DNA of 64,000 nt from Flavobacteriales bacterium (GCA_035299065.1 DATGXI010000034.1:6232-70231), one strand, 5' to 3'. Shown: positions 42,616-64,000, counted from the first letter of the stretch. Made by a program: numbers and translations. The notes: generated by a model not told the origin, from the letters alone.

Positions 42616-42814
42616 AAACAAGTTATGCAAAAGGCGCAATAAAATTGACGTGTTATTAATTTCTTTTTTGAAGTAAAGCGTAACCGTAGCAGAGTAAAAA
42701 TATTCCCGTAATTTACGACACGTCTCCGAACAAGCACAAATCAAAAATTTAGCGTTTTAAAAAAGCCAGCGCACTTTTTTGGGTTGTGAGTACACAACCC
42801 ATGTTGGCGCACGC

Positions 42815-42950: not shown

Positions 42951-43047
42951 TCCGGTCAAACAAGGCGCAAGCCACAGGCGTGTGGTAGAGCCAATTATAG
43001 GAAATTCTTATTTGTAAAAGAAAATTTATTAAATTTATAAAACCCCT

Positions 43048-44306: not shown

Positions 44307-44438
44307 ATTTAAGTGAAATGGGAAACAAATCAGTCAAACTAGGCCAAGCCACAGGCGTGTGGTAGAATGGTTTATAATTTTATAAACAACTAGAAATTTA
44401 CCTATTTTTTTACTATTTTCATTTAAAAACAAAAATCC

Positions 44439-44828: not shown

Positions 44829-44834
44829 TATTAT

Positions 44835-47195: not shown

Positions 47196-47197
47196 TA

Positions 47198-48508: not shown

Positions 48509-48525
48509 AATTAATAATTTAAGTA

Positions 48526-51500
48526 CTAAAAACTCGATGCTGCCAACTTTCTTTTAGCTTCTTCAATAGTTTCTATTTTAGGCATTGATTCATAATATTT
48601 ATCTTCTATACCATCAATATGCTCTAAAATAAATCGAGATTTCGGATATTTATCTCTGTACTCAGATAAAAATCTATTAAGATCATCTTTAACAATCTTT
48701 AGATTTTGCTCGCTTTGAATTCCTATTTTATGATATGCTGAAAGTACACTCGAATTAAAGTAACCTTTATCCTCTGATTCTTCTACTTCATAACTTAATT
48801 TCAGAAGTTCAAAAAGACCTGGTAAAACTCTTATAGAAGTAACGTTGGACAAACTTCTATAATTAATTTCCTCTTTGTGAGATTTCCAATGTGAATTAAC
48901 CAAGTCGATTAATAGCTGAATACCAACTTCGTTATCAATAATTACTAAATGATAACATGCGTTGATTTTAAAACTAATATCATCCCTTCTTTTCTCTTCG
49001 TTAACTAAAAAGTCCTTTATAAATTCCTCTTCGTTAACCTCAGATAGTTTTTTGATTATTTCCCATATAGTACCCGAATCGCACTTCGAGATTATTCTCT
49101 TTAAATACTCTTTGTCTAATGTTTCTTCATAATAAAGGTTTATTAGTTCCCTTTTCTCATATTCCGACCAATTTTCGTTTTCGATTTTCGCCTCTAGGAC
49201 CGTGTAAAAATCATAAAGTCTATTTTTCAGAACGTATTGAAAATGGTTCTTAAATATTTCAAAAATTGTGATTCCTTGTTCTATATTATCCTTAATTCTC
49301 TGGTTCACCTTATCGTTATCAATAAGTTTTATAAGATGATCGAAATTCAAGTATTTATATTCTAGTATTATTGAATAACTTAGCATATTAAGGAGCACTT
49401 CTTCTGATACAATAAAATTGAGCTTGTAATGGAAATAAAAGAAATAATTTGCATAGTAATTAAAAGTGGTTGTATTCCCTTTTCTTCTCAAAGATGTTCT
49501 GAAATCAAACTTTGATAGCACTCTATTACACCAATTTTCAATCCACTGAACTTGGTTTTGATTTAGAACTAAAAAGTCATTGTGTATCAGAAGTTGTTCA
49601 AGTCGTCCGACACAATATCTTTCTACGTTTTCTCTGTCCACAAACCATAATTCAACCTTTTCCTTATCAATGGTTTTTTCTACAGAATCCTTTTTTAAGT
49701 AGAGCATATCTCTCAGCAACCATAGTACCGCACCATTGTACTTGTCTTCTAACTCAACAATTCTATTATTTATCTTTAAAATATCATATAATTCAGATTT
49801 AGTAAGTTCTTCCTTTTTAAAATCCTCGAATATCTCTATTGCTTGTGATGCCATTGAATCAATATTAAACAATAGTTCAAATTCTTGAATTGTTTGTTGC
49901 CTTCTTATTTCGTTATAGTCAACCTGTGGCAACTCTTCAAAAACCAAGTCAGTTTTACGAGATAAATAATTGCGAAACTCTTTAGTACTTACTTCCTTAG
50001 AATTATATAAATTTGTACTTATGACTTGCAAATCTGATTTTTCGATTTTTTTCTGGTTGTATAATTCGACAAATAAATCCAACGTATCTTTAAAAACAAA
50101 GCAACTTAGCAAATAAGATCTGTCCCTTTTATTTTCAGTTCGAAGAATTTGAGCTATGGCTTTTGAAATACTCTGCGTTTGAACGAAATAAGAAACCAGT
50201 AGTTCTTTTATATCAAAATCAAAACTTATTCCACCCGCGCTAAACCAAGAGAGACATGCGCTAAATACATTATCGTTTACATTTTCCGCTTCAATTGCAC
50301 TTTTGATTAACGTTCTTGCGCTTTCTCCTGAATCATAATGGTGCCTAAAATACTCTCCTTCGGAAGCATAATTAATTAGTTTTGTAATCGATGCGTCTGT
50401 CTTTACCGCCCCAATACACTCTTTTAAATTATAAATCTCATTCATTGAGGTTGATCCACCTCTTTCTTCCGAATCAGTTCTATATCTTAGATCACACCCG
50501 CTTATAATATAGTCTACGTACTTATCACTAAGTTCGTAACCTAGAATAAGATCATACATAGCAGTTCTTATATATTTATTCGCGCTCTTGCCAAATAACG
50601 AAAATATATGCTCTATTTCGCTTACTTCCAATAATCTTGAAATTGTTAATGCCTTTAATATCTCACTAACAATATTGACCCTTGAACGGCATTTATCCAA
50701 TAATTCGATTAGCCTTTTCTTTACAGAGCTACCATTATCTAAATCACGAAAATTAAAATTCCCTAAAACTCTAATAGCGTTTCTAAGAGTTATTTCACTT
50801 GGCTCATCAAGTAAATTCAACAAATATTCAACACAACCTTTACTATTTCCGAAACTTGTAAATTCATGCAAATTAAGTTTATACTCATTTATCCAAAACT
50901 CATTTTTTTGGTAATATGAAAATATTTCTTTAAAGATAACTTCCCGCTTTACAATGTCAAGTTTTTCACGTTCTACTTTTATAATGAGTTCTTTGTCATT
51001 CTTCATTAACCAAGTGATGAGATCATCATAATAAGTGCCATTTTTTATCCCTAGTAAAAATGTTATAGTATTCATCCAACTTGGAATTAGCTTTGTATGT
51101 CCAGGAGAATATGTAATTAGGGTAATTATTTCATCAAATCTGAGTTTGGAAAGATATCTTGCTGCCAAATATTCTTGAAATAATCGATGTTCAAATTTCC
51201 AAATCCCACGACTATTTTCAGATTTAGTGAAAAGCTTCGAATATTTGATTAAATCAATTTTTGAAGAATCATCAATCACTGATTCGAAATCAGAATTGGA
51301 AATCGCATTTTTTCCCATAATTTCCATTAGAACTGCTATTCTCTCCAATAAGGATAACGTTTGACTCTTCTTAAGCGTTATATTATCAACTGTAAGTACA
51401 TATTTCTTCTGGTCAAAAAACATATCCATCTGTATGAATTGATCGAATAAATCCGACTTATTAGAGGGCAGTTGCCCCTTCTCAGCGTATAAGCTCGCTA

Positions 51501-52668
51501 ACGTTGTTAGATGAAATGGGTTTACCGTTAACTCATACAGTTCTTTGTCTTCAATTTCTTTACAAAAGTTCTTATAGTCTATTTTATACCTGTTTTTCAA
51601 AAAGGCTTTAACACTAGACTCGTAAAGATTTAAATTTGCGATAACAAAGACCTTAAAAAGTTCATCAAAAAAACTTACATTATTTAATGAAGCGTGTTCA
51701 AAGTGATTGGTTCTACAGGACAAAACTACCTTTGTACTCTGATTTTTCTGAACGAATTGTTTAATCTTCCTCATTAAGCCAATAAAATCTGAAGGTTCCA
51801 CTTCATCTAGGCCATCCATAAAAACAATAAATTTTTCCTGGTCAATATTAATCCAATTCTTTGGCAATATCTCTTCAATCTGTTCGTTCTTATATGTTTT
51901 AAAATCCAACATTAATGGAAAATACCCTAACGACTTAAGTTTAATACAAGTCTCTTGTAATTCCGTAGATTTTCCTGTCCCTCCATTTCCAATAACAATA
52001 ATTCTTTGATGGTTTAGAATCGCTTTTAAACATGGGATTGTTTCAAATCCCTCTGTTTCTATCCGACTAGCAAATTCTACTAATACTCGGGGAATCTTAT
52101 CTTCTTCTTTATGTCTGATCTGATCTAAAAAAGTATAATCTGGAGCGCTATTATCCCCTTTAATTTCTGTAATTTGCTCACTTATGTCCTCAAGCATCAG
52201 ATTAATTCTCGTGCTAGCCTCTTTTAATCCTGGATTCGTAACCTTAGTAATTAATTGTTTGAATATTTTTATAAAGTCGGTTAACTCACCCTTAATATTT
52301 ACATCTATATTTTTCAATTCAATAAGATAAGGGCTTGTATGCAGAGTATGATCAAGTAGTCTAACTAAATCCTCATATTCGCTTTCATTGTTGAAATAAT
52401 TTTGAAATTGTTTGGCAAATTCATTAAACAAAAAGAGCCTGGAAAAAGCTTTACCCTTCTCTTGCTCATATTTTAAAACAGCATGAAAATAAACCGATAT
52501 AAATTCGTCTTTTAAATCAGCGGCTAAAAAGAGGTAACGATTTTTTTGAAAGAATCTAAACAAACTGTATTGCTTGTTCATTTCTTTTTTAGCGCTCTGC
52601 CAAAAAAAGAAAATGACCTTACCAGCAAATGGTTTAATCCAACTACTTAAATTGAATCCAGTTGACAT
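48526..52668 (-). CDS. NACHT/STAND P-loop NTPase (bacterial NLR-like), 1380 aa
   Basis: Walker A IIVIGNGGTGKST, Walker B FIVFMDGLDEV, then a SCRTNHF sensor-like segment. About 220-aa unknown N-terminal domain and about 950-aa helical-repeat C-terminus. Confidence 0.8.
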   Translation of the reverse strand: MSTGFNLSSWIKPFAGKVIFFFWQSAKKEMNKQYSLFRFFQKNRYLFLAADLKDEFISVYFHAVLKYEQEKGKAFSRLFLFNEFAKQFQNYFNNESEYEDLVRLLDHTLHTSPYLIELKNIDVNIKGELTDFIKIFKQLITKVTNPGLKEASTRINLMLEDISEQITEIKGDNSAPDYTFLDQIRHKEEDKIPRVLVEFASRIETEGFETIPCLKAILNHQRIIVIGNGGTGKSTELQETCIKLKSLGYFPLMLDFKTYKNEQIEEILPKNWINIDQEKFIVFMDGLDEVEPSDFIGLMRKIKQFVQKNQSTKVVLSCRTNHFEHASLNNVSFFDELFKVFVIANLNLYESSVKAFLKNRYKIDYKNFCKEIEDKELYELTVNPFHLTTLASLYAEKGQLPSNKSDLFDQFIQMDMFFDQKKYVLTVDNITLKKSQTLSLLERIAVLMEIMGKNAISNSDFESVIDDSSKIDLIKYSKLFTKSENSRGIWKFEHRLFQEYLAARYLSKLRFDEIITLITYSPGHTKLIPSWMNTITFLLGIKNGTYYDDLITWLMKNDKELIIKVEREKLDIVKREVIFKEIFSYYQKNEFWINEYKLNLHEFTSFGNSKGCVEYLLNLLDEPSEITLRNAIRVLGNFNFRDLDNGSSVKKRLIELLDKCRSRVNIVSEILKALTISRLLEVSEIEHIFSLFGKSANKYIRTAMYDLILGYELSDKYVDYIISGCDLRYRTDSEERGGSTSMNEIYNLKECIGAVKTDASITKLINYASEGEYFRHHYDSGESARTLIKSAIEAENVNDNVFSACLSWFSAGGISFDFDIKELLVSYFVQTQSISKAIAQILRTENKRDRSYLLSCFVFKDTLDLFVELYNQKKIEKSDLQVISTNLYNSKEVSTKEFRNYLSRKTDLVFEELPQVDYNEIRRQQTIQEFELLFNIDSMASQAIEIFEDFKKEELTKSELYDILKINNRIVELEDKYNGAVLWLLRDMLYLKKDSVEKTIDKEKVELWFVDRENVERYCVGRLEQLLIHNDFLVLNQNQVQWIENWCNRVLSKFDFRTSLRRKGNTTTFNYYANYFFYFHYKLNFIVSEEVLLNMLSYSIILEYKYLNFDHLIKLIDNDKVNQRIKDNIEQGITIFEIFKNHFQYVLKNRLYDFYTVLEAKIENENWSEYEKRELINLYYEETLDKEYLKRIISKCDSGTIWEIIKKLSEVNEEEFIKDFLVNEEKRRDDISFKINACYHLVIIDNEVGIQLLIDLVNSHWKSHKEEINYRSLSNVTSIRVLPGLFELLKLSYEVEESEDKGYFNSSVLSAYHKIGIQSEQNLKIVKDDLNRFLSEYRDKYPKSRFILEHIDGIEDKYYESMPKIETIEEAKRKLAASSF

Positions 52669-52728
52669 TTTTTAATATTAAATTTTTTGTTTTATAATAA
52701 GGTACGAAATGTCTTAGAGCAAGAATAT

Positions 52729-53445
52729 TTATGAAGGAGTATGATTATACCATTCAATTAATTCTCGCAATCTTTTAACTAAAATATGTACAGTCGTGCT
52801 TGGATTGGCTTCTAGTGGACTGTTATCCATTTTTATGTGTTCGGAATAAAGCTTTTCAGCACGATTAATCGCATCAGATTCACTTCCCATCTCTTGTAAT
52901 GGCTTAAAAATCTCTAAACCCGCATGTTCATATTCAAAAGTATCATATCCTTGATATGCCCGAATTTCAGTCGTTAACATATTATAAATATCTTGACGCG
53001 CAATTGGCGTATTAGCGGGCACGCTAATAAAATGCAATAAAAGCCACAATTCAAAAACCTCATTACTATATGCAACTTTTATTTTTTGTTTCTTAGCTAG
53101 TGTAAAAGCGTCCACAAACCTGGCCGTATTTCCTTGGGATTTTTGGGCATCATCTTTATCAAAAACTGACCAAACCTCGTCTACGTGCTTACCTGCTTCC
53201 TCATATAGTTTTGTTCTTTCAATTACGGTTTGCTCAACAACGCCCTTATAGTTTCTTCCCGTTCCGACTGCTCTAAGAAATACAGTTTTATCTGGAAATT
53301 CCTTTACGAATCCATTAAAATAGAATGGCTCTGACTTTTGGTCTTCACAAACAATTAAAAATAGATGATCATACCTTTTTGGCCTAACAGGTCTATCGTC
53401 TTTATCCTTTAATTCTTTTTTATGGACTATTCCTTTGACCGCCAT
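52729..53445 (-). CDS. RloB-like (Toprim-like) protein
   Basis: 238 aa. FLIVCEDQKSEPFYF, VWSVFDKDD and AYSNEVFELWLLLHF are the hallmark RloB (PF13707-type) motifs. Confidence 0.75.
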   Translation of the reverse strand: MAVKGIVHKKELKDKDDRPVRPKRYDHLFLIVCEDQKSEPFYFNGFVKEFPDKTVFLRAVGTGRNYKGVVEQTVIERTKLYEEAGKHVDEVWSVFDKDDAQKSQGNTARFVDAFTLAKKQKIKVAYSNEVFELWLLLHFISVPANTPIARQDIYNMLTTEIRAYQGYDTFEYEHAGLEIFKPLQEMGSESDAINRAEKLYSEHIKMDNSPLEANPSTTVHILVKRLRELIEWYNHTPS

Positions 53446-54782
53446 TTAGCTGAATGAATAAAATTTTTAAAATCTCCAAGAACAGGAATAGCACCATATC
53501 GACCTTCAATATATCTCTTTTCTTTATCTGTATCAGGTCTCTCTTTTTCGGATTTGAATTCTCCATTTTTTTCTTCAAAATAGATAAAGTCTGACAAAGT
53601 ATAAAGCTCTGTGCTTTCCCATTTATTTTTTTCAGCGAAACACACTTGGTCTCTTCTTAACTGAGAATAACTTAAAAGATTTGTATCATGAGTCGCAAAA
53701 ATCAGTTGTGCCCCATTTGGATTGCTTTCTTTCCTTAAAAATAATTCAATTGTATTTAACGTCATTATTGGGTGCATTGCAGCTTCTATTTCATCAATTA
53801 TAAGAACCCCACCATTTGCAAGAGCCCATAAAACGGGGCCACTTAGTTTAAATGCTTTTTGGGTTCCTGCAGATTCTCTTTCATTAAAATCCCAACTATG
53901 CAATTCATTTGTAGGAGATCCATCGGATTTATATGTTTGATGAATTGCATGTACAATATAACTCTTGCTGCCTTTTAATTTTTGAGCTAATTGAGTCTTT
54001 AAATTTTCCGGCATACTATGAGGCAACTCTGATTCCTCAAAATCCTTTGGTGTAATTTCAACATCATGTAAACCTAGTCCTAAGTTTGATAAATATTTCC
54101 GAATAGTTTCCTTGTATTCGTTTAATTCAGATAGGGATGCCGTTCTAATATCATCATCTGTATTTAAACCATCAATCATTACAAATAACTTAAACCACTG
54201 CATTATTTTCTTAGCCTCCTCAACATTTAAAATATCACAGGTGGATAGGAAAAGTGCGTTGACTCGCGTTGCCTCAATAGCTGCGTCAATTAATTTCTTT
54301 GACCCGACATATCCAGAGCTAACATCAATAACATTCCCTTCTCTTTCAAAGAGACTTACTTCTCTTCCAGCAGATTTTCTAAATAGCCATTCCTTTTGGA
54401 CTTCTGTTGAGTTAAATTCAAGACCGTATCTATATCTATTTTCTTCAACAACAAACGATATTTCAAAAGTTGTTGGCTTATTAGACCATCCATCTCTTAA
54501 TAAGAAAGGATCATAAGGAAGTTTTGTTACAGACGATGTTCTAGCTGATATGTGAACAAGCATATCAAGAAGGCTCATTGATCTCAAAATATTAGATTTA
54601 CCTCCTCCATTAGGTCCATAAAGTGAAATTGCATTCAGACCTTTATATTTACTTTTGGAAATTATGTTTTGAGGATAGTCCTTTTGTTTAGGCGCTGGAA
54701 CCAAACTCAAAATTTGCTCTTCCCCAATCGATCTATAATTTGAAACTCTAAATTCAAGTAACATAGCTTTGCGAATTTTCAC
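53427..54782 (-). CDS. AAA_21/AAA_15-type ABC-like ATPase (partner of RloB)
   Basis: FRVSNYRSI, Walker A YGPNGGGKSN, Walker B LIIDEIEAAMHP, and FATHDTNLL. The track start is GTG; the ATG at 54764 (MLLEFRV) is the more likely start. 19-bp overlap with the RloB gene. Confidence 0.8.
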   Translation of the reverse strand: MKIRKAMLLEFRVSNYRSIGEEQILSLVPAPKQKDYPQNIISKSKYKGLNAISLYGPNGGGKSNILRSMSLLDMLVHISARTSSVTKLPYDPFLLRDGWSNKPTTFEISFVVEENRYRYGLEFNSTEVQKEWLFRKSAGREVSLFEREGNVIDVSSGYVGSKKLIDAAIEATRVNALFLSTCDILNVEEAKKIMQWFKLFVMIDGLNTDDDIRTASLSELNEYKETIRKYLSNLGLGLHDVEITPKDFEESELPHSMPENLKTQLAQKLKGSKSYIVHAIHQTYKSDGSPTNELHSWDFNERESAGTQKAFKLSGPVLWALANGGVLIIDEIEAAMHPIMTLNTIELFLRKESNPNGAQLIFATHDTNLLSYSQLRRDQVCFAEKNKWESTELYTLSDFIYFEEKNGEFKSEKERPDTDKEKRYIEGRYGAIPVLGDFKNFIHSAKWRSKE

Positions 54783-54904
54783 AAATATATGACACTTGGA
54801 TCAATAAAAAGCGTCCAACTATGCCTTTTTTGCTATTTTTCCGTAAAATAGTGGCATTTAGTCTAGATAATGTGCAATAAATTATTTTATTGATTATCAG
54901 ATAA

Positions 54905-55267
54905 TTAAAAAATCGAAGAACTCATTTTAATTAGTTCTTTATAAATCTCATTCGCTATTGGTTCTAGTGCCCTATTTGAGTCCTTTATATTAATCTTAGC
55001 GGCTTTTCTGGTTGCATTGTGATAGTATTCGCCAATACGTTCCTCCCCCGCTTTCTCCTCTATCCCTAGAATGGCGAATATGGTTTCGCTGAGATGTAAG
55101 CAGTAGTGCAAAGCATCAAAATCTAAAGCTTCCAGGCCATAAATAAGCCTGTTATTAATTAAATCATCTTTGATTAGGGCTATTAAAAGCTTTTCCTGAG
55201 TGATTTTTGGCTTTTTTGATTTCATATCACAACACTTTAGTGCTACAAAAATAAAATAAAGTGGCAT
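54905..55267 (-). CDS. hypothetical protein
   Basis: 120-aa ORF. The likely true start is the ATG at 55225 (MKSKKPK...), because the first 14 codons coincide with a promoter-like inverted repeat. Confidence 0.4.
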   Translation of the reverse strand: MPLYFIFVALKCCDMKSKKPKITQEKLLIALIKDDLINNRLIYGLEALDFDALHYCLHLSETIFAILGIEEKAGEERIGEYYHNATRKAAKINIKDSNRALEPIANEIYKELIKMSSSIF

Positions 55268-55370
55268 AAAATAACACTAAAGTGAATTAATATTAGCTTT
55301 TAGTTGTCTTTTAATACACTTTTCATTGATTTTAAGTTCTTTAGATATGCTTAAATTGCCACTTTATTTA
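55253..55370. promoter_or_regulatory. divergent promoter/operator region with inverted copies of TGCCACTTTATTT(TA)T(T/G)TTTG(T/A)AGCACT
   Basis: The minus-strand copy reads from 55266 leftward and the + strand copy from 55357 rightward. The minus copy contains TATTTTTG (TAnnTTTG). A third partial copy (TGCCACTATTTTA) lies on the minus strand at 54845-54856. Confidence 0.5.
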
Positions 55371-55387
55371 TGTTTTGAAGCACTTAA

Positions 55388-55600
55388 ATGGTCGAAAAGA
55401 TGGTATATAATCGAATTAAAGCAGTTTTAGCTGAAAAGGATAAGACAAATATCTGGTTAGCGGATAAATTGGGTAAGAACAAAACAACTGTATCTAAATG
55501 GTGTACCAATGATGTTCAACCAACCATTGAAACATTATTTGAAGTTGCTAAAGTTCTTGATGTAGATGTCCGTGAGTTACTGGTACCAACAAAAAAATAA
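55388..55600 (+). CDS. XRE/Cro-C1-family helix-turn-helix transcriptional regulator
   Basis: 70 aa. NRIKAVLAEKDKTNIWLADKLGKNKTTVSKWCTN is a typical HTH_3 pattern. Confidence 0.8.
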   Translation: MVEKMVYNRIKAVLAEKDKTNIWLADKLGKNKTTVSKWCTNDVQPTIETLFEVAKVLDVDVRELLVPTKK

Positions 55601-55670
55601 TTTGTAAAATCACCAACTTTGTTTACAATCTCTCTTTTTTAATTAATAATGATTCCGTAGCTTTATTCAA

Positions 55671-56213
55671 ATGAAGCAAAGTCACGATTTTGGGCATATA
55701 AAATCAGCGTATCAAGAAGGATATAATGATGCTATTAAGAAAAAAATTGATAAGCTACCTACAACTGTTGAGAACTGGTTTGAAACTTTAAATCAAATTG
55801 AGTTTAAGTTTCTATCTGATATAAAATGGGTAGGTGTTCTAATGTATCCCTATTATCCAATAGGAGATTTATTCGCTGATTTTGGCAACCCATTTAAAAA
55901 GGTTGCCGTTGTAATAGAATATAAAAATCATGATGGCGCTCTTTTGGAAAAAAGAATTAATTCTTTTAGAGAAAAAGGATGGACAGTTTATACGCTAGAA
56001 AGTAAATCAGTAACATACACCGCTGAAGAATTATTCGACTACAATAAAACAGATCCTAATTTGGACTTTTATGAAATTCCGCAAGAAGAGTTTGTAGAGT
56101 TTGTTAATTTAAATAAAGCCAAAAACTCTCAATGTTTGCTATATTATATACGTTTTAATCATTTTGATTGGTTAGACGCCCTTGAGGAAGAAATGGAAGA
56201 GCTCGAACAATAA
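55671..56213 (+). CDS. hypothetical protein, possible DUF559/Vsr-like endonuclease fold
   Basis: 180 aa. The segment ADFGNPFKKVAVVIEYKNH...EKR...FREKGWTVYTL resembles the DUF559 core (xDF...xIExDG.xH...D..R...L...GW.V.R). Weak, motif-level only. Confidence 0.35.
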   Translation: MKQSHDFGHIKSAYQEGYNDAIKKKIDKLPTTVENWFETLNQIEFKFLSDIKWVGVLMYPYYPIGDLFADFGNPFKKVAVVIEYKNHDGALLEKRINSFREKGWTVYTLESKSVTYTAEELFDYNKTDPNLDFYEIPQEEFVEFVNLNKAKNSQCLLYYIRFNHFDWLDALEEEMEELEQ

Positions 56214-56529
56214 TTCTTTTTTTGTTACACAACTGTTAAACGCTACCGTTGCCTCAATAGGCACGTGAACAAAAGTTAAAATCACTAACATTCTTTTCAT
56301 TCGGCACGTTATTTCGTTTAAACGCATTTATTAGAAAAGAAAGGAAGGGATGAAAAATGCCACAACAAAATCAAAACATCAATTGTAAATAGTTTATCTG
56401 TATGACAACTATTGCATGGGGTTTCTCTTTTGACGGGTTCTCTTCCTCAAACAAATAGTTCAACCTTTCGTTGGTTGTTCGCAGAACCTTAAATTTTTTC
56501 CAATTATTTAATTTTTAAAATTTAAGATT

Positions 56530-57279
56530 ATGTCTAGTTTCACAGAAACAGGGCACGCAAAAAACGTTGCCAATTTTGAAGATCTCATTTCGTTCTGTAC
56601 CGGTTATGGTGCTACCTACAACCCGGTGAACGTTAACATTAAAATTCCTGCATTAAACTCAAAGTACACGGCTTGTGTGAACGCCATACTTGCGGTTAAG
56701 GTGGCCAAAACGGCTTTTGACAATTCAACCAACTCGCGTGAGCTTGTATTTGCTTCGCTCAAGAAACTCTCCACACGCGTTGTAAACGCTCTGGAGGCTA
56801 CCACGGCTGCAAAGGTAACCGTTGATGATGCAAAGACTGTAAACCGCAAAATTCAGGGCAAGCGTGCCTCCAAGGTACCCGAAGAACCATCCGATGGTGG
56901 TGGCACGGGTGCAGAGGCTCCCGTTAAGACCATATCGGTGTCACAGCAGAGTTATGACAGCCTGATTGATCATTTCATCAAGCTGATACAGATCGTGAGC
57001 ACTGAGCCCCTTTATTTGCCCAACGAGACGGATTTAAAGGTGGTTACTTTAAATGCTTTGCTGGTGAGTTTAAAGGCTGCCAACACTTCGGTGATTGGTA
57101 CCACTACTTCTTACAGCAACAGCCGTATTACGCGTGACAGTGCTTTGTATGATGTTACAACGGGTATGGTTGACCTGGCTTTTGAGGTAAAGGCTTACGT
57201 GAAGAGTTTGTACGGGGCAGGCAGTATGCAATACAAACAGGTAAGCGGGTTAAAATTTACAAAGATCAAACATTCGTAA
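56530..57279 (+). CDS. hypothetical protein (GC content like the core genome)
   Basis: 249 aa, Ala/Thr/Val-rich, followed by a strong intrinsic terminator. Confidence 0.55.
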   Translation: MSSFTETGHAKNVANFEDLISFCTGYGATYNPVNVNIKIPALNSKYTACVNAILAVKVAKTAFDNSTNSRELVFASLKKLSTRVVNALEATTAAKVTVDDAKTVNRKIQGKRASKVPEEPSDGGGTGAEAPVKTISVSQQSYDSLIDHFIKLIQIVSTEPLYLPNETDLKVVTLNALLVSLKAANTSVIGTTTSYSNSRITRDSALYDVTTGMVDLAFEVKAYVKSLYGAGSMQYKQVSGLKFTKIKHS

Positions 57280-57288
57280 TGTGTTTGA

Positions 57289-57316
57289 GGGGTTTCTTAA
57301 GGAACCCCTTTTTTTT
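57289..57316 (+). terminator. rho-independent terminator
   Basis: GGGGTTTC-TTAA-GGAACCCC (8-bp stem including one G-U pair) followed by T8. Confidence 0.8.
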
Positions 57317-57354
57317 GTCGTGTTGTGAACGATTAAAAAAAGAAAGCTGGCATC

Positions 57355-57599
57355 CTGTATTAGTGTTTTCCTGCCAACAGGTAGAAATCTCGTATCCGCA
57401 TTTAGTGTTCCTGCAACTGTGCGGAGTATTCTTGCGACTAACAAAAGAAAGTTAGCGTCCCTACTTAGTGTTCTTGCGTCTGCACTTAGAAACCTTGCGA
57501 CCTGAGTTAGTGTTCTTACAACTACGCGGAGTGTTTTCGTCTCCGCATTTAGAATTCTCTTAACTGCACTTAGTGTTCTCTGACCAATTGACAGTTTTT
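57355..57599. repeat. 21-bp-periodic iteron-like array, copy 1 (about 11 units, consensus about CTGCACTTAGTGTTCTTGCGA)
   Basis: TTAG(T/A) cores at 57360, 57402, 57465, 57486, 57507, 57549 and 57570. All spacings are multiples of 21. Confidence 0.85.
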
Positions 57600-57647
57600 A
57601 CTCATCAGTAAAATATACTCAAACAAATAGATGTTCTGTTCATTATA

Positions 57648-58550
57648 TCAATTTGGACCATCATAATTTGGGCCTCTATATTTTACTTTAATTTTAGAGT
57701 GCTCAATTCGCTTACGCCAGTAATCTTTGGAGGTCACTTTTGCCTCTTTTACGATTTGCAAATTTACCTCTCTCCAAATGACCCTATTTCTAAATCTTTC
57801 TGCTCTTTTTCGGTTGAACTCAATTACAGATTCGGGGCAATAAAAAGTATGGACTTTGTCTTTCTTTTCGTTTTCAAACACAAAGAAACAATAAGCATAT
57901 GGCGTTGTGTTCGAATGAATAATACGTATTTCTGAATATTGGTTAAAAACCTCTTTTTGTATTTGTATATATTTTTCATCATGAAGAATAACTTCTACTC
58001 CATCCACATGAGGAGATAGCACCATATTTTGATCTATAAAAGGTAAAGTATATACGGTCTTTAAATCGGTATCTTTAATTTCGAATTTTCTTTTAAACGT
58101 TTCTATTACTTCCTTTCCTTCGACCGTTTCTTCATCAAAAGTGTATTTGCCAACGACTTTATCCGTTGAATCGTACATTTTCCCTCTTTTAAATTTAAGA
58201 GAAGATATTGCCTTAATAAAAGAGTCCTTGGATTCCTTTTCCAATTGCTTTTTATCCTTAAAGTCGATTTTAAAAAAGGGTGGATCAAATAGAGAAAAGA
58301 GCAATAATGGTTCACCATTATGAATTATGGGCACGAAAAAACAACGAATATCCCATTTAATTGAAGAGTTATATTCCCATCTGATTTTACTCTTAATAAA
58401 ATTAAAACTTGCTCTTTTACCAGACTTCCAATGATGAGTCATGAGCTTAAATTGCTCATCCCATATTTTATGATCTTCTAAATTTTTGTTAATGGCAGCA
58501 CCTATAATTTCGCGATTAAAAACAAGTTTCATACGGTCTTTTTCTTTCAA
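57648..58550 (-). CDS. hypothetical protein
   Basis: 300 aa, AT-rich, Lys/Glu-rich, no recognisable domain. Lies in a roughly 1-kb segment that is absent from the second copy of the surrounding repeat. Confidence 0.5.
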   Translation of the reverse strand: MKEKDRMKLVFNREIIGAAINKNLEDHKIWDEQFKLMTHHWKSGKRASFNFIKSKIRWEYNSSIKWDIRCFFVPIIHNGEPLLLFSLFDPPFFKIDFKDKKQLEKESKDSFIKAISSLKFKRGKMYDSTDKVVGKYTFDEETVEGKEVIETFKRKFEIKDTDLKTVYTLPFIDQNMVLSPHVDGVEVILHDEKYIQIQKEVFNQYSEIRIIHSNTTPYAYCFFVFENEKKDKVHTFYCPESVIEFNRKRAERFRNRVIWREVNLQIVKEAKVTSKDYWRKRIEHSKIKVKYRGPNYDGPN

Positions 58551-58675
58551 ATATAAAAAAACATTTCACTTACAAACTAATATATTCCAAATCCTTTCGA
58601 ACTTAACATAACTTACTGACCATGACGTGTTAGTTTGGCACATATTTTCTCTAACCGACCTGTGTATCATTCTTG

Positions 58676-58961
58676 GGCAGCGTCATTTTTCAGAGAGGAC
58701 AAGAGGAACTTCCCGCCACCGCACGTCAAACACATTAAAGGGTTTTTAGTTTTAAAATTAGCTGGCATCTAAAAACCCTTTAATAAGTTTGCCTTCCCTC
58801 CCTGTACGGGCACCTTGAATAGGGTGTTATCGTATTTGCCGACTCTTTTTTTTAAAACGCTAAATTTTTGATTTGTGCTTTTAAGGGCAGGGTTCTTTAG
58901 TTGGACACGTTCTTTAACGGGGGAAAGGGAAAAGGTTGGCCCAAAGGGGTGTGCGCCCTCT
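58676..58961 (+). repeat. conserved non-coding module, copy 1 (possible structured RNA or regulatory element)
   Basis: Near-identical to 62037-62373 apart from a 50-bp indel. Contains a perfect 15-bp hairpin (58735-58749 / 58769-58783) and ends directly at an attC-like site. Confidence 0.8.
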
Positions 58962-59096
58962 GCATAACTTGGCGGTGGCCGCTATTGCGGGGCAGCAACA
59001 ATTGTTAAGGTAAAAGCATTATATTAGCGTAACGTTTTGGTGAAGGGTTCGGGGCATTTATTCCGCAACAGCAAGCCCACCGCCCGAACGTTATGC
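58962..59096 (+). repeat. attC-like site 0 (135 bp)
   Basis: GCATAAC-TTGGCGGTGGCC ... GCCCACCGCCCGAAC-GTTATGC. The terminal 7-mers are perfectly complementary. Confidence 0.6.
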
Positions 59097-59106
59097 GTAA
59101 CCTTTT

Positions 59107-59565
59107 ATGACATTCGAACAACATATTGACCGACTGGAAAAATTTCTTAAAGACAAATGCAAAATCGTGCGAGAAAATAAAAATTCGTTTTTTGCAGTTT
59201 CAGACGGACACGAGTTTCACTCGCCAATTTACATATGCGACCAAGGAGGAACAATACACGTTGGTATCGGTGATACATATGATTACTTTGACAAGCCCAA
59301 AGAACAGTTGGATAAAGCTGTATTGCGCTTTCTGACTTTACTGACGTGTAAAATCGAACGGACGGACTATTTTAAAGGAAATAATCTCTATAAAAGTACT
59401 TTTATTTTGCCAGACAATAAAACTGACTCCTATAACCAGGCTTCTTATAGATTCCCTTTTCCGTTTTGGAAAAAAACTAAGACAAATAAGATTATTCAAT
59501 TACCAATTATAACAGCTAGCGACATCGAAACGCATTTTGGCGATCTAACAAAAGGCAACGCATAA
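59107..59565 (+). CDS. cassette ORF, hypothetical protein
   Basis: 152 aa. The ATG is 11 nt after the preceding GTTATGC. The stop TAA is embedded in the next site's GCATAAC core. Confidence 0.55.
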   Translation: MTFEQHIDRLEKFLKDKCKIVRENKNSFFAVSDGHEFHSPIYICDQGGTIHVGIGDTYDYFDKPKEQLDKAVLRFLTLLTCKIERTDYFKGNNLYKSTFILPDNKTDSYNQASYRFPFPFWKKTKTNKIIQLPIITASDIETHFGDLTKGNA

Positions 59566-59751
59566 CAGGTCGGTGGCCGCTATTGCCCAGTAACAAGCAA
59601 CTTTATAAGCCGCATTTCCATATTACGCCAAGGGCGTTAAGTAAAATTGCCTTTTAACCGCAGACATCATAAATATTTTACTTAACTTGTGCTCTAACCG
59701 AAACGTTTCCATAAGGTCGGCAACAGCAAGCCCACCGCCCGAACGTTAGGG
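59560..59751 (+). repeat. attC-like site 1 (192 bp)
   Basis: GCATAAC-AGGTCGGTGGCC ... inner hairpin GTTAAGTAAAAT/ATTTTACTTAAC ... GCCCACCGCCCGAAC-GTTAGGG. Confidence 0.6.
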
Positions 59752-59771
59752 GCAAGCTACAAACAGTAAGT

Positions 59772-60062
59772 ATGAAAACCGCGCGCATTTATGTAGACTT
59801 TAATGAGATGGTTGAAGACGATCTCGTCCTTTTAGCAAAAGACAATTTTACAATTGATTCCCAAGGTAACCGTGTTGAATTACGCGAAGGACTTAAAGTC
59901 GACATTTACATGGATGACATAGACGACAACGATAATCCAGACAATTTAATCGCAAGCGGAATTGTTCTTCCTAACAACACAGACATTCCGTGGACGAAAA
60001 ATGCGCTTTGGTTGTGCCGAATAGATAAGGATGGAATTAGACATGAATCCGATGTTCAATAA
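59772..60062 (+). CDS. cassette ORF, hypothetical acidic protein
   Basis: 96 aa. Starts 21 nt after the GTTAGGG core. Confidence 0.5.
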   Translation: MKTARIYVDFNEMVEDDLVLLAKDNFTIDSQGNRVELREGLKVDIYMDDIDDNDNPDNLIASGIVLPNNTDIPWTKNALWLCRIDKDGIRHESDVQ

Positions 60063-60081
60063 ATAAACTTGTTTTGCCAGC

Positions 60082-60273
60082 CCCTAACTTGGCGGTGGCC
60101 GCTATTGCCGGGAACAGGGTCAGTTCAGGGCGCGTTTTTGTACTTTTAAGCCGGTCACGTTAAACAAAAAACGTTTTACCGGTAGACATTCATAATTGTT
60201 TTTTGTTTAACTTGCTTTTGAAAGTAACGTTTCCAAGGTCGGCAACAGCATGCCCACCGCCCGAACGTTAGCC
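60082..60273 (+). repeat. attC-like site 2 (192 bp)
   Basis: CCCTAAC-TTGGCGGTGGCC ... inner hairpin GTTAAACAAAAAAC/GTTTTTTGTTTAAC ... GCCCACCGCCCGAAC-GTTAGCC. Confidence 0.6.
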
Positions 60274-60323
60274 GTAATTATTGCTACCGATGGTTTAATA
60301 AGCACTAAAAAATTAACGATTCA

Positions 60324-61688
60324 TTGAGAACTTTAGCCGTCATATCATTATTTTTTCTGCCTGTTGTGAATTGTACTTCACAAAGTTTTGAAACAGCAGG
60401 CATGCCAACTCCTGTTGCTCAAATTCGCGATATAAGTATAGATACTATTGGAAATAAAATGTATACCGTAGGTATTCAAACACTGGATGGTTCTGGTATG
60501 CTTTCTTTAAATACCGCTTACATGTACGATGGAACCACTTGGACTTCCATGGATACTCTTTATAACGTCACTTATTGTTCCGCTTTTTATAATGGCGAAT
60601 TAATCATAGGTGGCGGGTTTGTTGACAGTGCTGGAGTTAATCAAAAATACCTAAGCAAATGGACCGGCACAAAATGGGTACATTTTGGTGATAGTATTAA
60701 TAATACTGTTTTAGGTATGAGAATAATTGGTAATGATTTGTATTGCATGGGTCATTTTACACACATTGGAAATATTAATGTAAAAGGCATTGCAAAATGG
60801 GATGGCTCTACATGGAGTAATGTATATAATTGTCCATTTACAGGAATTGTTGACTGCACAATTTACAATGGTGATTTATACGTAGCAGGAAATTTTGACA
60901 GCACTGAAATAGACATCATAGATATTGCTGTTTATAAAGCCGGAACTTGGCAAAAAGTTGGGGTTACGGATTATGTTAAGGGAGGTTTAGGATCTATTTC
61001 CTGTATGGAAATTTATAAAAATGAGCTTTACATCGCTGGATTCATTGCTAAATTTGAAGGTAACGTAGGCCATGGAATCCAAAAATGGAATGGCACTAAT
61101 TGGTCTGAAGCTGGAACAGGCGTTCAGGACAATACTAACGGGTATTCTACCTGGGCTCCTGTATATGATTTAATGGTTTACCAAAATAAATTATATGTTG
61201 GAGGCGCTTATTGGTATTCAGGCAATATTTATAGCCGTGGTTTTTCAACGTGGGATGGTAATCAATGGTGCGCAATTGACACAACATTTACCGGGTCAGT
61301 AAAACATGCCGTTTTTCAGGATACGCTTTTTGCTAGTTCAGCTACTGATACAGTTGCCGGTATTTACGTTAATAATCTCGCAAAATTTACAGACTTGGCA
61401 GTTGATTCCTGTAGTATTGCTTTTAGCATTGATGAGAATGAAAATTCAAGCATTTTGGATATTTATCCAAATCCAACAAATGGGAACGTAACGATAACCT
61501 TAAACAAAATGTTACCCGATGCCGGTTTGTCGATAATTAATGCCTTGGGTGAAGTTATCTTAAAAAGAGATTTAAGTTTTTTAAATGAGATAGAACTTGA
61601 TATTTCAAATTTTCCTAACGGAATTTATTTTGTGCAAATCGCAAACAATCAAGTCAGATCTACTAAGAAAATCATACTTCGGAAGTAA
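60324..61688 (+). CDS. secreted repeat (beta-propeller-like) protein with T9SS C-terminal sorting domain
   Basis: 454 aa. Signal peptide, recurring W-x-G-x-x-W repeats (KWTGTKW, KWDGSTW, KWNGTNW, TWDGNQW), and a C-terminal LDIYPNPTNGNVTI...GIYFVQI Por-tail. TTG start. Confidence 0.7.
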   Translation: MRTLAVISLFFLPVVNCTSQSFETAGMPTPVAQIRDISIDTIGNKMYTVGIQTLDGSGMLSLNTAYMYDGTTWTSMDTLYNVTYCSAFYNGELIIGGGFVDSAGVNQKYLSKWTGTKWVHFGDSINNTVLGMRIIGNDLYCMGHFTHIGNINVKGIAKWDGSTWSNVYNCPFTGIVDCTIYNGDLYVAGNFDSTEIDIIDIAVYKAGTWQKVGVTDYVKGGLGSISCMEIYKNELYIAGFIAKFEGNVGHGIQKWNGTNWSEAGTGVQDNTNGYSTWAPVYDLMVYQNKLYVGGAYWYSGNIYSRGFSTWDGNQWCAIDTTFTGSVKHAVFQDTLFASSATDTVAGIYVNNLAKFTDLAVDSCSIAFSIDENENSSILDIYPNPTNGNVTITLNKMLPDAGLSIINALGEVILKRDLSFLNEIELDISNFPNGIYFVQIANNQVRSTKKIILRK

Positions 61689-61745
61689 AAGGTTTAATCC
61701 ATCTCGAAAATAATTTCTCCAACTGTAAGTAGTATACTAGCAAAC

Positions 61746-61990
61746 TGAGTTGGTGTTTTCCTGCCATGAATTGGAAATCTCCTATCCTGATTTAGTATTG
61801 TTGCATCCTCACTTAGAAATCTTCCACTTGTCAAAAGAAAGTTCGCGTCCGTACTTAGTGTTCTTGGATCCGCAAAAGGAATTCCCGCGACCTGACTTAG
61901 TGTTCTTGCACCTGCACGGAGTATTCTCGTCTCCGCATTTAGAATTCTCTTAACTGCACTTAGTGTTCTCTGACCAATTGGCAGTTTTTT
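61746..61990. repeat. 21-bp-periodic iteron-like array, copy 2
   Basis: Colinear with 57355-57599. The last roughly 50 bp are identical (CGTCTCCGCATTTAGAATTCTCTTAACTGCACTTAGTGTTCTCTGACCAATTG). Confidence 0.85.
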
Positions 61991-62036
61991 GTTATCTGAT
62001 CACCAATACGTGTTAATCACCAGGCGTGTTATTTTT

Positions 62037-62373
62037 GGCAGCGTCTTTTTTCAGAGAGGAAAGTAGGAACTTCCCGCCACCGCGCGTCAAACACATTTAA
62101 GGGTTTTTTTTGTGTTGAAATAAGCTGGCATCTAAAACCCTTTAATAAGTTTGCCTTCCCTCCCTTTACAGGCACCTTGAATAGGGTGTTATCGCATTTG
62201 CCGACCTCTTTTTTTATTCGGGGAATAATTTGTCTTTTAGCCGTCCTCATGAATGCAAAGCATTTAAAACGCTAAATTTTTGTTTTGCGCTTTTAAGGGC
62301 GGGGTTCTTCATTTGGACACATGCTTTATCGGGGGAAAGGGAAAAGGTTGGCCCAAAGAGGTGTGCGCCCTCT
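62037..62373 (+). repeat. conserved non-coding module, copy 2
   Basis: Colinear with 58676-58961, with an extra segment at 62216-62265. Abuts attC-like site 3. Confidence 0.8.
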
Positions 62374-62602
62374 GCATAACTTGGCGGTAGCCGCAACCTG
62401 CCTGCCATAGCGCAAGCCAGTGCAAGGGCAGGCAGGGTGCTAGGGGCAAGGTCAGGTCAGGACACGTTTTTGTATTATACTGTCTCCGTTAAACAAAAAA
62501 CGTTTTATCGGCAGACAATCATAATTGTTTTTGTTTAACTTTACTTCGGTCGGTACGGTTTCAAAATTTGGCACCTGCAAGCCCACCGCCCGAACGTTAG
62601 GT
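62374..62602 (+). repeat. attC-like site 3 (229 bp)
   Basis: GCATAAC-TTGGCGGTAGCC, an extra palindrome CCTGCCTGCC...GGCAGGCAGG, the inner hairpin at 62488-62539, then GCCCACCGCCCGAAC-GTTAGGT. Confidence 0.6.
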
Positions 62603-62609
62603 GTAATTT

Positions 62610-62864
62610 ATGTCGACCGAGGATAGATATTACGTAACAAGGTACTGCAAAAATTGTGGCAATAAAGACAATTTCCATTTTTCTAAAAGGGAAATGGCTT
62701 TCGGACTTTACAGTACAAAAGCAATTTGGGACACCCCTTGTACAAAGTGCAAATCTGAGGAATGCTCAGGATCTTCAAGACTTGGCGTAACTATGGATAA
62801 GGACCTTTTTAAAGAATGGTCTTTAATGACGAATTATACATTGACGAACAGGATGAAGAAATAA
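62610..62864 (+). CDS. cassette ORF, small Cys4 zinc-ribbon-like protein (possibly the N-terminal part of a frameshifted gene)
   Basis: 84 aa with CKNCG...CTKCKSEEC. The ATG is 8 nt after GTTAGGT. Confidence 0.45.
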   Translation: MSTEDRYYVTRYCKNCGNKDNFHFSKREMAFGLYSTKAIWDTPCTKCKSEECSGSSRLGVTMDKDLFKEWSLMTNYTLTNRMKK

Positions 62865-63115
62865 TTCTTGCGAAAGAAATTAATTTAGCTCTCATACTAG
62901 AATTAGTAGACGATCCTGTCACATTGAGAAGTAAAAAACAAACACTCTATGCCGCACTTTGTGTTTTAATTTATGATTCAATAAACTCAAACAACAAATT
63001 ATTAGAGCTTGTGAGAACGGAATTAATAAAACGAAAAGAGGACTTTCTTAAGACAGAGCCATTTATCATGGATTATATACGGAAAAAAGTATTCCCAATA
63101 ATTGGTTTAGAATAA
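62816..63115 (+). CDS. cassette ORF overlapping the previous one by 49 bp in another frame (possibly the C-terminal part of the same gene)
   Basis: 99 aa. There is no independent spacing or promoter, and the reading frames abut at ...DLFKEW / (M)VFNDELY... Confidence 0.4.
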   Translation: MVFNDELYIDEQDEEIILAKEINLALILELVDDPVTLRSKKQTLYAALCVLIYDSINSNNKLLELVRTELIKRKEDFLKTEPFIMDYIRKKVFPIIGLE

Positions 63116-63120
63116 ACTAC

Positions 63121-63312
63121 ACCTAACAGCCCGGTTAGCGCAAGCGCCATGGAAGAAGCAACTTTTTAAGTCTCGTTTTCACATTACGCCAAGGGCGTTA
63201 AACAAAATTGCCTTTTAACCGCAGAGATCATAATTATTTTGTTTAACTTGTGCTCAAACCGAAACGTTTCCATAAGGACGGCAACAGCAAGCCCACCGCC
63301 CGAACGTTAGCG
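63121..63312 (+). repeat. attC-like site 4 (192 bp, divergent left arm)
   Basis: ACCTAAC-AGCCCGGTTAGCGC..., inner hairpin GTTAAACAAAAT/ATTTTGTTTAAC, then GCCCACCGCCCGAAC-GTTAGCG. Confidence 0.5.
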
Positions 63313-63331
63313 GCAATTTGCAATCACATTT

Positions 63332-63943
63332 ATGTTAAAAATAGTCAGACGAGAAATTGATGTAGCGTCCTTGGGTCCAGACGACCCCAGGAGTCCAAGT
63401 GCAAAAAGGCTTGCTCTTATTTCGCGTTTTTTTCTCTTATTTTTTACTTTTTTAATACCATTTGCTATGTATCGGTTTTTTTATCGCCCCGATACAACAA
63501 CAAATTTCATTGCTATTATAACCATAATTATTCTCGCATTTTTTGCAACCTATTTGATGACCAATCGTGCAAAAAAGCACTCACCAGTAATCAATCCAAT
63601 GGTTGAAGTTTTAGAAGTTAAAACCAGTCGAATAATTAAAAGAATTTCAAACGATGAAAACATTAGTTGCTTTTACGTTGACATTTTTTATGAAGGTCAT
63701 GCAAAAGTGCTTTTTTTGCAAAACCTTTTTGTTAACGATAAGGAATCTGAGAATAGTTTTCCAAATACCGATTTCGAAATAACTAGAAATCCCGATACGC
63801 AGGAAATATTCGAGGTTAAAACAAAAGGTCGGTCTTTTAAGCCAGAAAAAACGCTTAATCCCTTTACTGAAATGGACTTTGAGGAGAACAGAATTCCTGA
63901 GGATTGCGAAATATTAGATACGACCATTGACGCTATTAAGTAG
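63332..63943 (+). CDS. cassette ORF, hypothetical membrane protein
   Basis: 203 aa with two TM helices (LISRFFLLFFTFLIPFAMY, FIAIITIIILAFFATYLM). Starts 20 nt after GTTAGCG. Confidence 0.5.
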   Translation: MLKIVRREIDVASLGPDDPRSPSAKRLALISRFFLLFFTFLIPFAMYRFFYRPDTTTNFIAIITIIILAFFATYLMTNRAKKHSPVINPMVEVLEVKTSRIIKRISNDENISCFYVDIFYEGHAKVLFLQNLFVNDKESENSFPNTDFEITRNPDTQEIFEVKTKGRSFKPEKTLNPFTEMDFEENRIPEDCEILDTTIDAIK

Positions 63944-63954
63944 TGGCAAACAAC

Positions 63955-64000
63955 CCCTAACTTGGCGGTGGCCGCAAGCACCAGGCCGCAACCTGCCTGC
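63955..64000 (+). repeat. attC-like site 5, truncated by window end
   Basis: CCCTAAC-TTGGCGGTGGCCGCAAGC...GCCGCAACCTGCCTGC resembles the left part of site 3. Confidence 0.5.

Follow-up and report, generated by a model that had tools for sequence, protein, structure and literature searches.

What maintains a hairpin whose two arms change from copy to copy but remain complementary? This question is raised by a 64,000 nt stretch of DNA from a Flavobacteriales bacterium (GCA_035299065.1 DATGXI010000034.1:6232-70231, hereafter the window), in which positions 58962–64000 hold five complete repeats and the first part of another, all on the + strand. A first-pass annotation described four of these repeats (sites 1–4) as similar to attC, the recombination sites of integron cassettes, and noted in the centre of each an inner hairpin that seemed to be conserved in structure rather than in sequence. 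Our preferred answer, to which we give a probability of roughly 0.55, is that the repeats at 58.9–64.0 kb are recombination sites of a chromosomal, integron-like cassette array, that the inner hairpin is a folding module in single-stranded DNA (ssDNA), and that the likely enzyme is a Xer-like tyrosine recombinase encoded in the same window.

All of the sites in the window and in related arrays (described below) have ends of the form xTAAC ... GTTA(G/T), in which the AAC and GTT triplets are invariant but for one site (L040a) that carries GTCA. The extended RYYYAAC ... GTTRRRY consensus is matched in part only (e.g. GCATAAC, GTTAGCC). Internal to these ends lie outer arms that pair within a site and differ between sites (GGCGGTGG/CCACCGCC, CCTGTTGG/CCAAACAGG, CCGTGTTGCCGA/TCGGCAGAACACGG and CACGCTACAAGCA/TGCTTGTAGCGCG), the complementarity score being 12.1 for arms of the same site and 7.0 for arms of different sites (permutation P < 5e-5). 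The second pair of boxes of an attC site (L″/L′) is thus represented by a stem conserved in pairing and not in sequence. Between arrays, similarity is confined to the repeats (at most 89% over 207 nt) and the open reading frames (ORFs) are unrelated, which is the signature of a cassette array. The cassette ORFs of the window lie on the same strand as the sites. One of them (60324–61688) encodes a type IX secretion C-terminal sorting domain, an indication of Bacteroidota, and the others are short and have no Pfam match. Apart from the sorting-domain tail, they have no homologue in the related arrays, and exact look-ups of three cassette proteins found no record.

The description of the repeats as attC-like therefore stands with regard to their TAAC ... 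GTTA ends, their co-varying arms, the same-strand ORFs and the restriction of similarity between arrays to the repeats; it does not extend to length, to the side on which bulged bases lie, or to a cognate IntI. The sites measure 129–225 nt, most of them 186–190 nt, around a centre of about 130 nt, and lie outside the canonical range. The architecture is attC-like, and the sites are not canonical attC but a variant of attC-type sites. Site 0, which is short and lacks the inner hairpin, appears to be a deletion derivative that retains part of the 5′ arm. In site 3 the 5′ outer arm is immediately followed by an additional G+C-rich hairpin (62393–62440; CCTGCCTGCC.../...GGCAGGCAGG), and the truncated site 5 starts in the same way (63975–64000; GCAACCTGCCTGC); this looks like a second modular hairpin insertion.

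With regard to the inner hairpin itself, every coordinate and sequence reported earlier for the four copies matches the window on re-reading. In computed folding as ssDNA, the hairpins of sites 1–4 reach −7.2 to −9.9 kcal/mol, with z-scores of −2.7 to −4.5 relative to dinucleotide shuffles, of which 0–1 in 200 folded equally well. The exchange of GT/AC for AC/GT between sites 1 and 4, from which selection on structure had been proposed, is real: their arms differ by four transitions, all within two adjacent pairs (G:C and T:A versus A:T and C:G). Given two changes in the 5′ arm, the chance that two changes in the 3′ arm are the complementary partners is about 1/594 by our own arithmetic. As high similarity is normal among attC sites within one long chromosomal array (Cury et al., 2016; PMC4889954), the likeness of sites 1 and 4 is, taken by itself, weak proof.

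A broader comparison rests on 16 distinct homologous hairpin copies from eight independent contigs or contig sets. Relatives were sought by scanning genomes and metagenomes with a 19-mer from the conserved 3′ arm (R′ side). Of the two matches in genomes, one is a real relative and one is due to chance; of the seven in metagenomes, four are real and the other three, in G+C-rich coding DNA, are due to chance. The relatives are L001, from a Bacteroidota metagenome-assembled genome (MAG), and the Joint Genome Institute metagenome contigs L003, L006, L007 and L009. More copies came from the surroundings of recombinase homologues (L031, L033 and L038). In a covariance-model alignment of the 16 copies, at least 94.3% of the base-pair cells are paired, a lower bound because the 3′ arms of L031 and L007, whose pairing is perfect on direct reading, are misaligned by the model. 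Double-sided changes are seen in 7 of the 14 pairs (18 cells), a result matched by 0 of 500 shuffles, and controls in which the partners were slid were 32–62% paired.

Direct reading of the copies shows how these changes are distributed. Pair 6 is A:T in 8 copies and G:C in the other 8, and the sub-lineages recognized from the flanks require at least three changes at this pair. Pair 7 is C:G in 15 copies and T:A in one. Pairs 1 and 2 are G:C and T:A, except in L007, where both are A:T, and pair 5 has been lost from both arms in L031 and L007 through coordinated one-base deletions. The facing runs of A and T are 4/4, 5/5 or 6/6 long in 11 copies and off by one in 5, and the closing pair is T:A or C:G depending on the lineage. 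Single mismatches within the inner stem number only two (L003d and L007b), both of them A·C on the + strand and G·T on the − strand. The inner stem is under a pairing constraint, and the compensatory substitutions and coordinated insertions or deletions that reveal it hold across all 16 copies.

Several observations weigh against reading this co-variation as the product of selection for folding. Independent compensatory events are few, about 5–7, and the alignment was fitted to the structure and so is biased towards pairing. The copies are related, and some are chimeric. Site 4 has a 5′ outer arm from another lineage and a correspondingly poor outer stem (own-arm score 4 versus the mean of 12.1), and may be inactive; a second chimera, L006f (L006 2656–2851), has a different breakpoint. 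The repeats evidently exchange segments by homologous recombination, and some of the co-variation could therefore have spread in this way. Furthermore, there are sites without the hairpin in the same or related arrays (site 0, L033b, L038b, L035a, L040a and the L041 sites), and the hairpin is therefore not essential to the system. A palindrome without function, kept by template switching within quasi-palindromes, gene conversion between copies and recent shared ancestry, with each pair of changes arising as a single event, would account for the small number of sub-lineages, for the exchange proved by the chimeras, for the persistence of site 0 after hairpin loss and for the working of hairpin-less sites. 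We nevertheless consider this explanation unlikely. No segment of the site is better conserved than the arms (identity 0.80, compared with 0.63 in the loop and 0.54 and 0.67 in the left and right parts), and the pairing of the arms is kept across arrays from different samples with no cassette in common. Different pairs and run lengths have changed in different lineages, and the loop measures 24–28 nt throughout the 16 copies.

The loop carries a conserved motif of its own. Sites 2 and 3 had been assigned a loop different from that of sites 1 and 4, but the two are homologous and share the core TTTTAnCnGyAGAC; the fuller form TTTTAnCGGyAGACA is present in 13 of the 16 loops. The motif also occurs in the sites of contig L041, which lack GTTAAAC arms, possess another inner hairpin (GCAAATGC/GCATTTGC) and accompany a recombinase just 49% identical to that of the window. 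In a MAFFT alignment the window-type 5′ arm is an insertion relative to the L041 sites. Recurrence of the motif in sites without these arms argues that it predates the arms and is under constraint at the level of sequence, which strengthens the earlier doubt that the loop is a passive terminal structure. A TTTTGTAC(T)TTTAA box precedes the motif in L041 and also occurs in window sites 2 and 3. Boxes of this kind are present in the centres of otherwise unrelated site lineages, upstream of the GACA-containing loop motif (Table 1). Inspection by eye revealed no consistent pairing that would indicate loop sub-structure or a pseudoknot with the flanks, and candidate binding sites for IHF or DnaA were dropped for poor resemblance.

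Conservation of both the arm sequence and the loop motif would also be expected if the arms formed a palindromic operator in duplex DNA, recognized by a dimeric protein such as a regulator, or serving as an accessory site of the recombinase, so that what is conserved is symmetry and not the ability to fold. Short palindromes (GAAACGTTTC, GAACAGTTC) and direct repeats (CGTTTCCATA) beside the hairpin agree with such a role, as does a GGYAGRA-like motif that, in both the window and L035, also neighbours the attI hairpin. The distance between the half-sites (the length of the loop) is unusual for a dimer, however, and positions 1, 2, 6 and 7 switch bases yet stay complementary, a behaviour better explained by a pairing constraint; we regard the operator as distinctly unlikely. 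The palindromes belong to a conserved (G/T)AAC(N0-1)GTT(T)CC box in the right flank of the hairpin in all related sites (e.g. 59608–59622, 59705–59716). This box is palindromic in two sub-lineages and resembles the 3′-end GAACGTTA, and in the same two sub-lineages the direct repeat is located on both sides of the hairpin. The second motif, GGYAGGAT, resembles the loop core GGYAGACA and is located just 5′ of the attI-like hairpin (window 42565–42581; L035 ~7615–7640). Motifs like it were noticed post hoc in 2 of 7 attI-like regions and may be due to chance.

The arms were also said to begin and end with perfect GTTAAAC/GTTTAAC heptamers resembling recombination cores. These heptamers are not invariant, since site 1 has GTTAAGT/ACTTAAC, L031 GTTAGC/GCTAAC, L007 AATAGC/GCTATT and L001 TTTAAAC, and they are dispensable in that L007 replaces GTT/AAC with AAT/ATT while pairing is kept. 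The observation bears on the proposal that the hairpin serves as a secondary or nested site of recombination, or is a small palindrome that moved into the sites as a mobile element. Consistent with this proposal, 14 of the 16 stems have GTT and AAC triplets at their base, the site 4 chimera, as judged by eye, breaks near the 5′ base of the hairpin, and alignment with the L041 sites treats the 5′ arm as an insertion. The order of the triplets (GTT in the 5′ arm, AAC in the 3′) is that of an R box reversed, there is no second box, spacer or bulge, and the L006f chimera breaks elsewhere. On these grounds, together with the AAT/ATT of L007, we rejected a nested attC. Searches of viral contigs and a model scan of the window found no copy of the hairpin outside these sites; 20 pattern matches in the viral contigs are unrelated A/T-rich hairpins without the loop motif or flanks. 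A nested site or mobile palindrome of any form is very improbable.

The next issue is which strand folds. The − strand folds more stably in 10 of 13 sites, by a mean of about 2.8 kcal/mol (our own arithmetic). Mismatches in the outer stem are A·C on the + strand, and hence G·T on the − strand, in 26 cases, with three in the reverse sense, and one G·T-compatible wobble occupies an identical stem position in lineages of sites that differ greatly. Together with the two inner-stem mismatches, this bias indicates that the better-folding strand is the complement of the cassette ORFs. Gap positions in the outer stem of the + strand number 137 in the 5′ arm versus 29 in the 3′ arm, such that the bulged bases lie in the 3′ arm when the + (coding) strand is considered and in the 5′ arm when the − strand is. 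Canonical extrahelical bases reside in the 3′ arm of the folded bottom strand, near L″ (Larouche and Roy, 2011; PMC3053210; Nivina et al., 2016; PMC5027507), and the geometry of the present sites is therefore mirrored.

The same data bear on the possibility that the hairpin is an RNA element of the cassette transcript, acting for example as a terminator, in regulation or to stabilise the 3′ end. Its position just past the cassette ORFs on the coding strand would suit such a role, and the stem could form in RNA, where RNAalifold detects it. The two inner-stem mismatches, however, are A·C on the coding strand, which is poor in RNA, and G·T wobbles on the other DNA strand. Moreover, the stem is A/U-rich with no T-run behind it. 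An Rfam scan of 54–64 kb (E ≤ 1) gave no match at the hairpins and only a sub-threshold match to the L20 leader elsewhere; no attC family is included in Rfam. A promoter and terminator scan likewise found nothing at the hairpins, the promoter model being one that does not cover Bacteroidota, and a TAnnTTTG promoter box sought by eye was dropped on being seen in some sub-lineages only. A function in RNA is accordingly improbable.

If the sites are recombined as folded DNA, an enzyme is required. The window encodes a Xer-like tyrosine recombinase of 370 aa in which the catalytic motifs are present and the N-terminus is extended by about 90 aa. It falls below the cut-offs of two NCBIfam models, scoring 203 bits with NF040815 (cut-off 220) and 178 bits, in two separate stretches, with the integron-integrase model TIGR02249 (cut-off 265). 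Opposite residues 179–244 of VchIntIA (2A3V) it has 24 residues, and the IntI-specific insertion is absent. It aligns without a gap to archaeal XerA, and a Flavobacteriales MAG has an identical protein on record. The segment of IntI in question holds the contacts with extrahelical bases (K209, Y210, W219, P232, H240 and H241; Larouche and Roy, 2011; PMC3053210).

An attI-like site follows the recombinase gene, its hairpin starting about 40 nt past the stop codon. Contig L031, a Logan contig from another sample, encodes an identical recombinase in the same gene neighbourhood, and both the window and L032 equal L031 up to ...CAAGTTA and are unrelated beyond it. Past this point L031 continues with a 192-aa ORF and then a site of the window family, with inner arms GTTAGCAAAAAAC/GTTTTTTGCTAAC. 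The cassette junction lies exactly at GTTA; in other words, comparison of the window and L032 with L031 reveals different sequences, in L031 a cassette, joined at the GTT beside the recombinase gene, as expected of attI. Six homologues of the recombinase (49–59% identical; L033, L035/36, L037, L038/39, L040 from Flavobacterium petrolei, and L041/42) repeat this layout, with the recombinase gene, a hairpin and TATAAACAAGTTA-like motif, and ORFs on the same strand, and attC-like sites in all but L037. In L037 the attI-like motif adjoins a non-coding flank, and the same flank follows the second and last site in L033. We interpret this pair as an empty and a filled platform, and thus as a second attI-type case. 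Recombinase, attI-like site and cassettes are linked in eight loci, namely the window, the locus with the identical recombinase and the six homologues, and the array adjoins the recombinase directly in L031, L033, L035, L038, L040 and L041. Several contigs (L032, L034, L035, L036, L040 and L041/L042) stop 0.1–4.4 kb downstream of the recombinase gene, among them one of 252 kb (F. petrolei) and one of 1.06 Mb (a MAG). This would be expected if repeat-rich arrays interrupt short-read assembly, and such arrays are probably under-represented in public genomes.

The arrangement in the window is less direct, and this counts against assigning the sites to this recombinase. The gene is on the same strand as the array but 16.4 kb from its first site, and neither nhmmer nor two scans for arm complementarity found a site between the attI-like site and site 0 (42.6–58.9 kb). 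Domain searches of the window proteins found no IntI in the 64 kb, and none of the genes beside the array encodes a recombinase; a canonical IntI may be encoded elsewhere in the genome.

On the preferred reading, each site would be a long imperfect palindrome in which a TAAC/GTTA box and a co-varying stem surround the centre, and it would act as folded ssDNA, with the complement of the coding strand folding better. The inner hairpin would be a stem-loop module of the centre, the counterpart of the attC variable terminal structure, limited to one widespread site lineage. Its A/T-rich stem of 12–14 bp may form locally, compact the long centre and limit competing pairings or misfolding, thereby helping the distant outer arms to meet, and it would display the conserved loop motif, probably to a protein. 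The co-oriented Xer-like recombinase, with its own attI-like site, is the likely enzyme. These assignments of ssDNA folding, of a folding aid, of protein binding by the loop and of the acting recombinase we infer from patterns in the DNA. In long chromosomal attC sites the terminal structure may be branched, and it influences how the site folds and which strand is chosen (Nivina et al., 2016; PMC5027507), with which the proposed folding-aid role agrees.

How does this system compare with those already described? In integrons with an inverted integrase, such as that of Treponema denticola, the integrase is co-oriented with the cassettes. The window resembles an IntI platform of this inverted class in having a recombinase gene beside an attI-type site, joining at GTT(A), and a downstream array. 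The recombinase differs from IntI in its sub-threshold family scores and N-terminal extension, and in lacking the insertion of about 40 aa (I2 helix and β-4,5) that contacts extrahelical bases (Larouche and Roy, 2011; PMC3053210), although this insertion is not fully conserved in an integron-like subgroup (Smyshlyaev et al., 2021; PMC8138268). Like chromosomal attC sites of the Vibrio cholerae type, the repeats are imperfect palindromes with AAC/GTT end triplets and arms conserved in pairing; their centres are variable, long and possibly branched, they follow promoterless same-strand ORFs, and they are homogeneous within an array. In both cases the ORF-complementary strand folds better, with the mean difference of about −2.8 kcal/mol here comparing with −2.12 kcal/mol (Nivina et al., 2016; PMC5027507). 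The differences include a length of 186–225 nt, whereas canonical attC sites span 57–141 bp with a variable terminal structure of 20–100 nt (PMC5027507; PMC4889954), an asymmetric box spacer (2–3 nt versus 5–6 nt), bulged bases on the opposite arm (Larouche and Roy, 2011; PMC3053210; Nivina et al., 2016), a centre with a sequence-conserved hairpin and loop motif, and the lack of a cognate IntI in the window.

Among other tyrosine recombinases, only XerC/D are known to recombine a folded single strand with a duplex site (Nivina et al., 2016; PMC5027507). The parallel with XerCD and the attP hairpin of CTX phage lies in a Xer-type enzyme without the IntI domain, with action on a folded strand being predicted in the present case. 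In contrast to that system, in which host dimer-resolution enzymes serve a phage, the recombinase here is a dedicated one beside a many-cassette array. A standard integron search would probably report the 58.9–64 kb array, with no integrase nearby, as a cluster of attC sites lacking integrases (CALIN). Unlike a CALIN, it has a linked recombinase and attI-like site upstream, and these are linked to such arrays in seven other loci. Only one complete integron has been reported in Bacteroidetes (Néron et al., 2022; PMC9024848), and in the literature searched we found no description of an integron-like system with such a recombinase in Flavobacteriia/Bacteroidota.

Conservation of pairing over sequence is a textbook property of attC. 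Given also that branched centres are known, the hairpin finding alone is modest, and the recombinase system of the array is the more valuable lead. What sets these sites apart is a sequence-constrained centre, with a stem and a loop motif common to a distant lineage. In canonical integrons the attC centre is regarded as variable and free of integrase binding. We also entertain, tentatively and at somewhat less than even odds, a wider proposal: that an integron-like cassette system extends across Flavobacteriia/Bacteroidota in which a dedicated Xer-like recombinase without the IntI domain acts on folded ssDNA sites of about 190 nt with mirrored bulges, and in which the sequence-conserved central motif, borne in the present lineage by the inner hairpin, recruits the N-terminal domain of the recombinase or a host factor, as an independent or ancestral solution. 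The IntI-specific domain is held to be the innovation that enabled use of single-stranded hairpins (Escudero et al., 2016; PMC4792948), and the linked recombinase lacks it. If this enzyme acts on the sites, the origin of cassette recombination from Xer-type enzymes would become directly testable. Such a system would also account for the near-absence of complete integrons from searches of Bacteroidetes (PMC9024848) and would imply a large reservoir of cassettes that has escaped notice, with secreted proteins among the products encoded here; the 16-kb block beside the attI-like site holds anti-phage defence genes as well.

Table 1. Coordinates of the repeats, inner hairpins, recombinase locus and neighbouring genes (window positions unless a contig is named).
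Feature	Position	Strand	Remarks
Schlafen/AlbA_2 protein	47198–48508	−	Defence-type gene
STAND NTPase	48526–52668	−	Defence-type gene
AAA_21/RloB pair	52729–54782	−	Defence-type genes
Tyrosine recombinase, Xer-like	41426–42538	+	Pfam Phage_integrase and Phage_int_SAM_4
attI-like site	42581–42625	+	16-bp hairpin 42581–42596/42600–42615, then ATAAACAAGTTA, GTTA 42622–42625
Site 0	58962–59097	+	Short (~130 nt), no inner hairpin; 5′-arm remnant GTTAAGGTAAAAG; outer arms complementary (score 13)
Site 1	59560–59752	+	TAAC 59563–59566; GTTA 59745–59748; inner hairpin 59636–59686
Site 1 hairpin arms	59636–59647/59675–59686		GTTAAGTAAAAT/ATTTTACTTAAC; window read directly
Site 2	60082–60274	+	TAAC 60085–60088; GTTA 60267–60270; inner hairpin 60159–60211
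Site 2 hairpin arms	60159–60172/60198–60211		GTTAAACAAAAAAC/GTTTTTTGTTTAAC; perfect 14-bp stem
Site 3	62374–62603	+	TAAC 62377–62380; GTTA 62596–62599; inner hairpin 62488–62539
Site 3 hairpin	62488–62539		5′ arm as site 2; 3′ arm one T shorter, giving a one-base bulge
Site 4	63120–63313	+	TAAC 63124–63127; GTTA 63306–63309; inner hairpin 63197–63247 intact
Site 4 hairpin arms	63197–63208/63236–63247		GTTAAACAAAAT/ATTTTGTTTAAC; window read directly
Site 5	63955–64000	+	TAAC 63958–63961; cut by window end
Cassette ORFs	59107–59565, 59772–60062, 60324–61688, 62610–62864, 62816–63115, 63332–63943	+	
TTTTGTAC(T)TTTAA-like box	60126–60141, 62466–62479		Window
TTTTGTAC(T)TTTAA-like box	13512–13644		L038
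TTTTGTAC(T)TTTAA-like box	13095–13269, 14270–14454, 15133–15330		L041

The surroundings of the array have features of their own. The 16.3 kb between the attI-like site and site 0 (42626–58961) contains unknown ORFs on the + strand, together with the defence-type genes on the − strand listed in Table 1. The whole stretch, with its anti-phage defence genes, may represent a giant cassette or an island that entered the array. Two non-coding copies that are 91–93% identical (58673–58964 and 62034–62376), with strong hairpins at 58727–58791 and 62088–62153, are located directly upstream of sites 0 and 3, each downstream of a block of 21-nt repeats. At the first copy, a 300-aa ORF on the − strand (57648–58550), with no Pfam match, lies between the two blocks. 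The repeat blocks (57347–57606 and 61737–61996) are 78% identical to each other, and each comprises about 10 degenerate repeats with a 21-nt period and a consensus near CTGCACTTAGTGTTCTTGCGA. They contain no ORF and have no Rfam match, and Tandem Repeats Finder misses them on account of their degeneracy; the 21/42-nt spacing is seen by repeat search. Judging by this periodicity, the blocks could be iteron-like or regulator-binding arrays.

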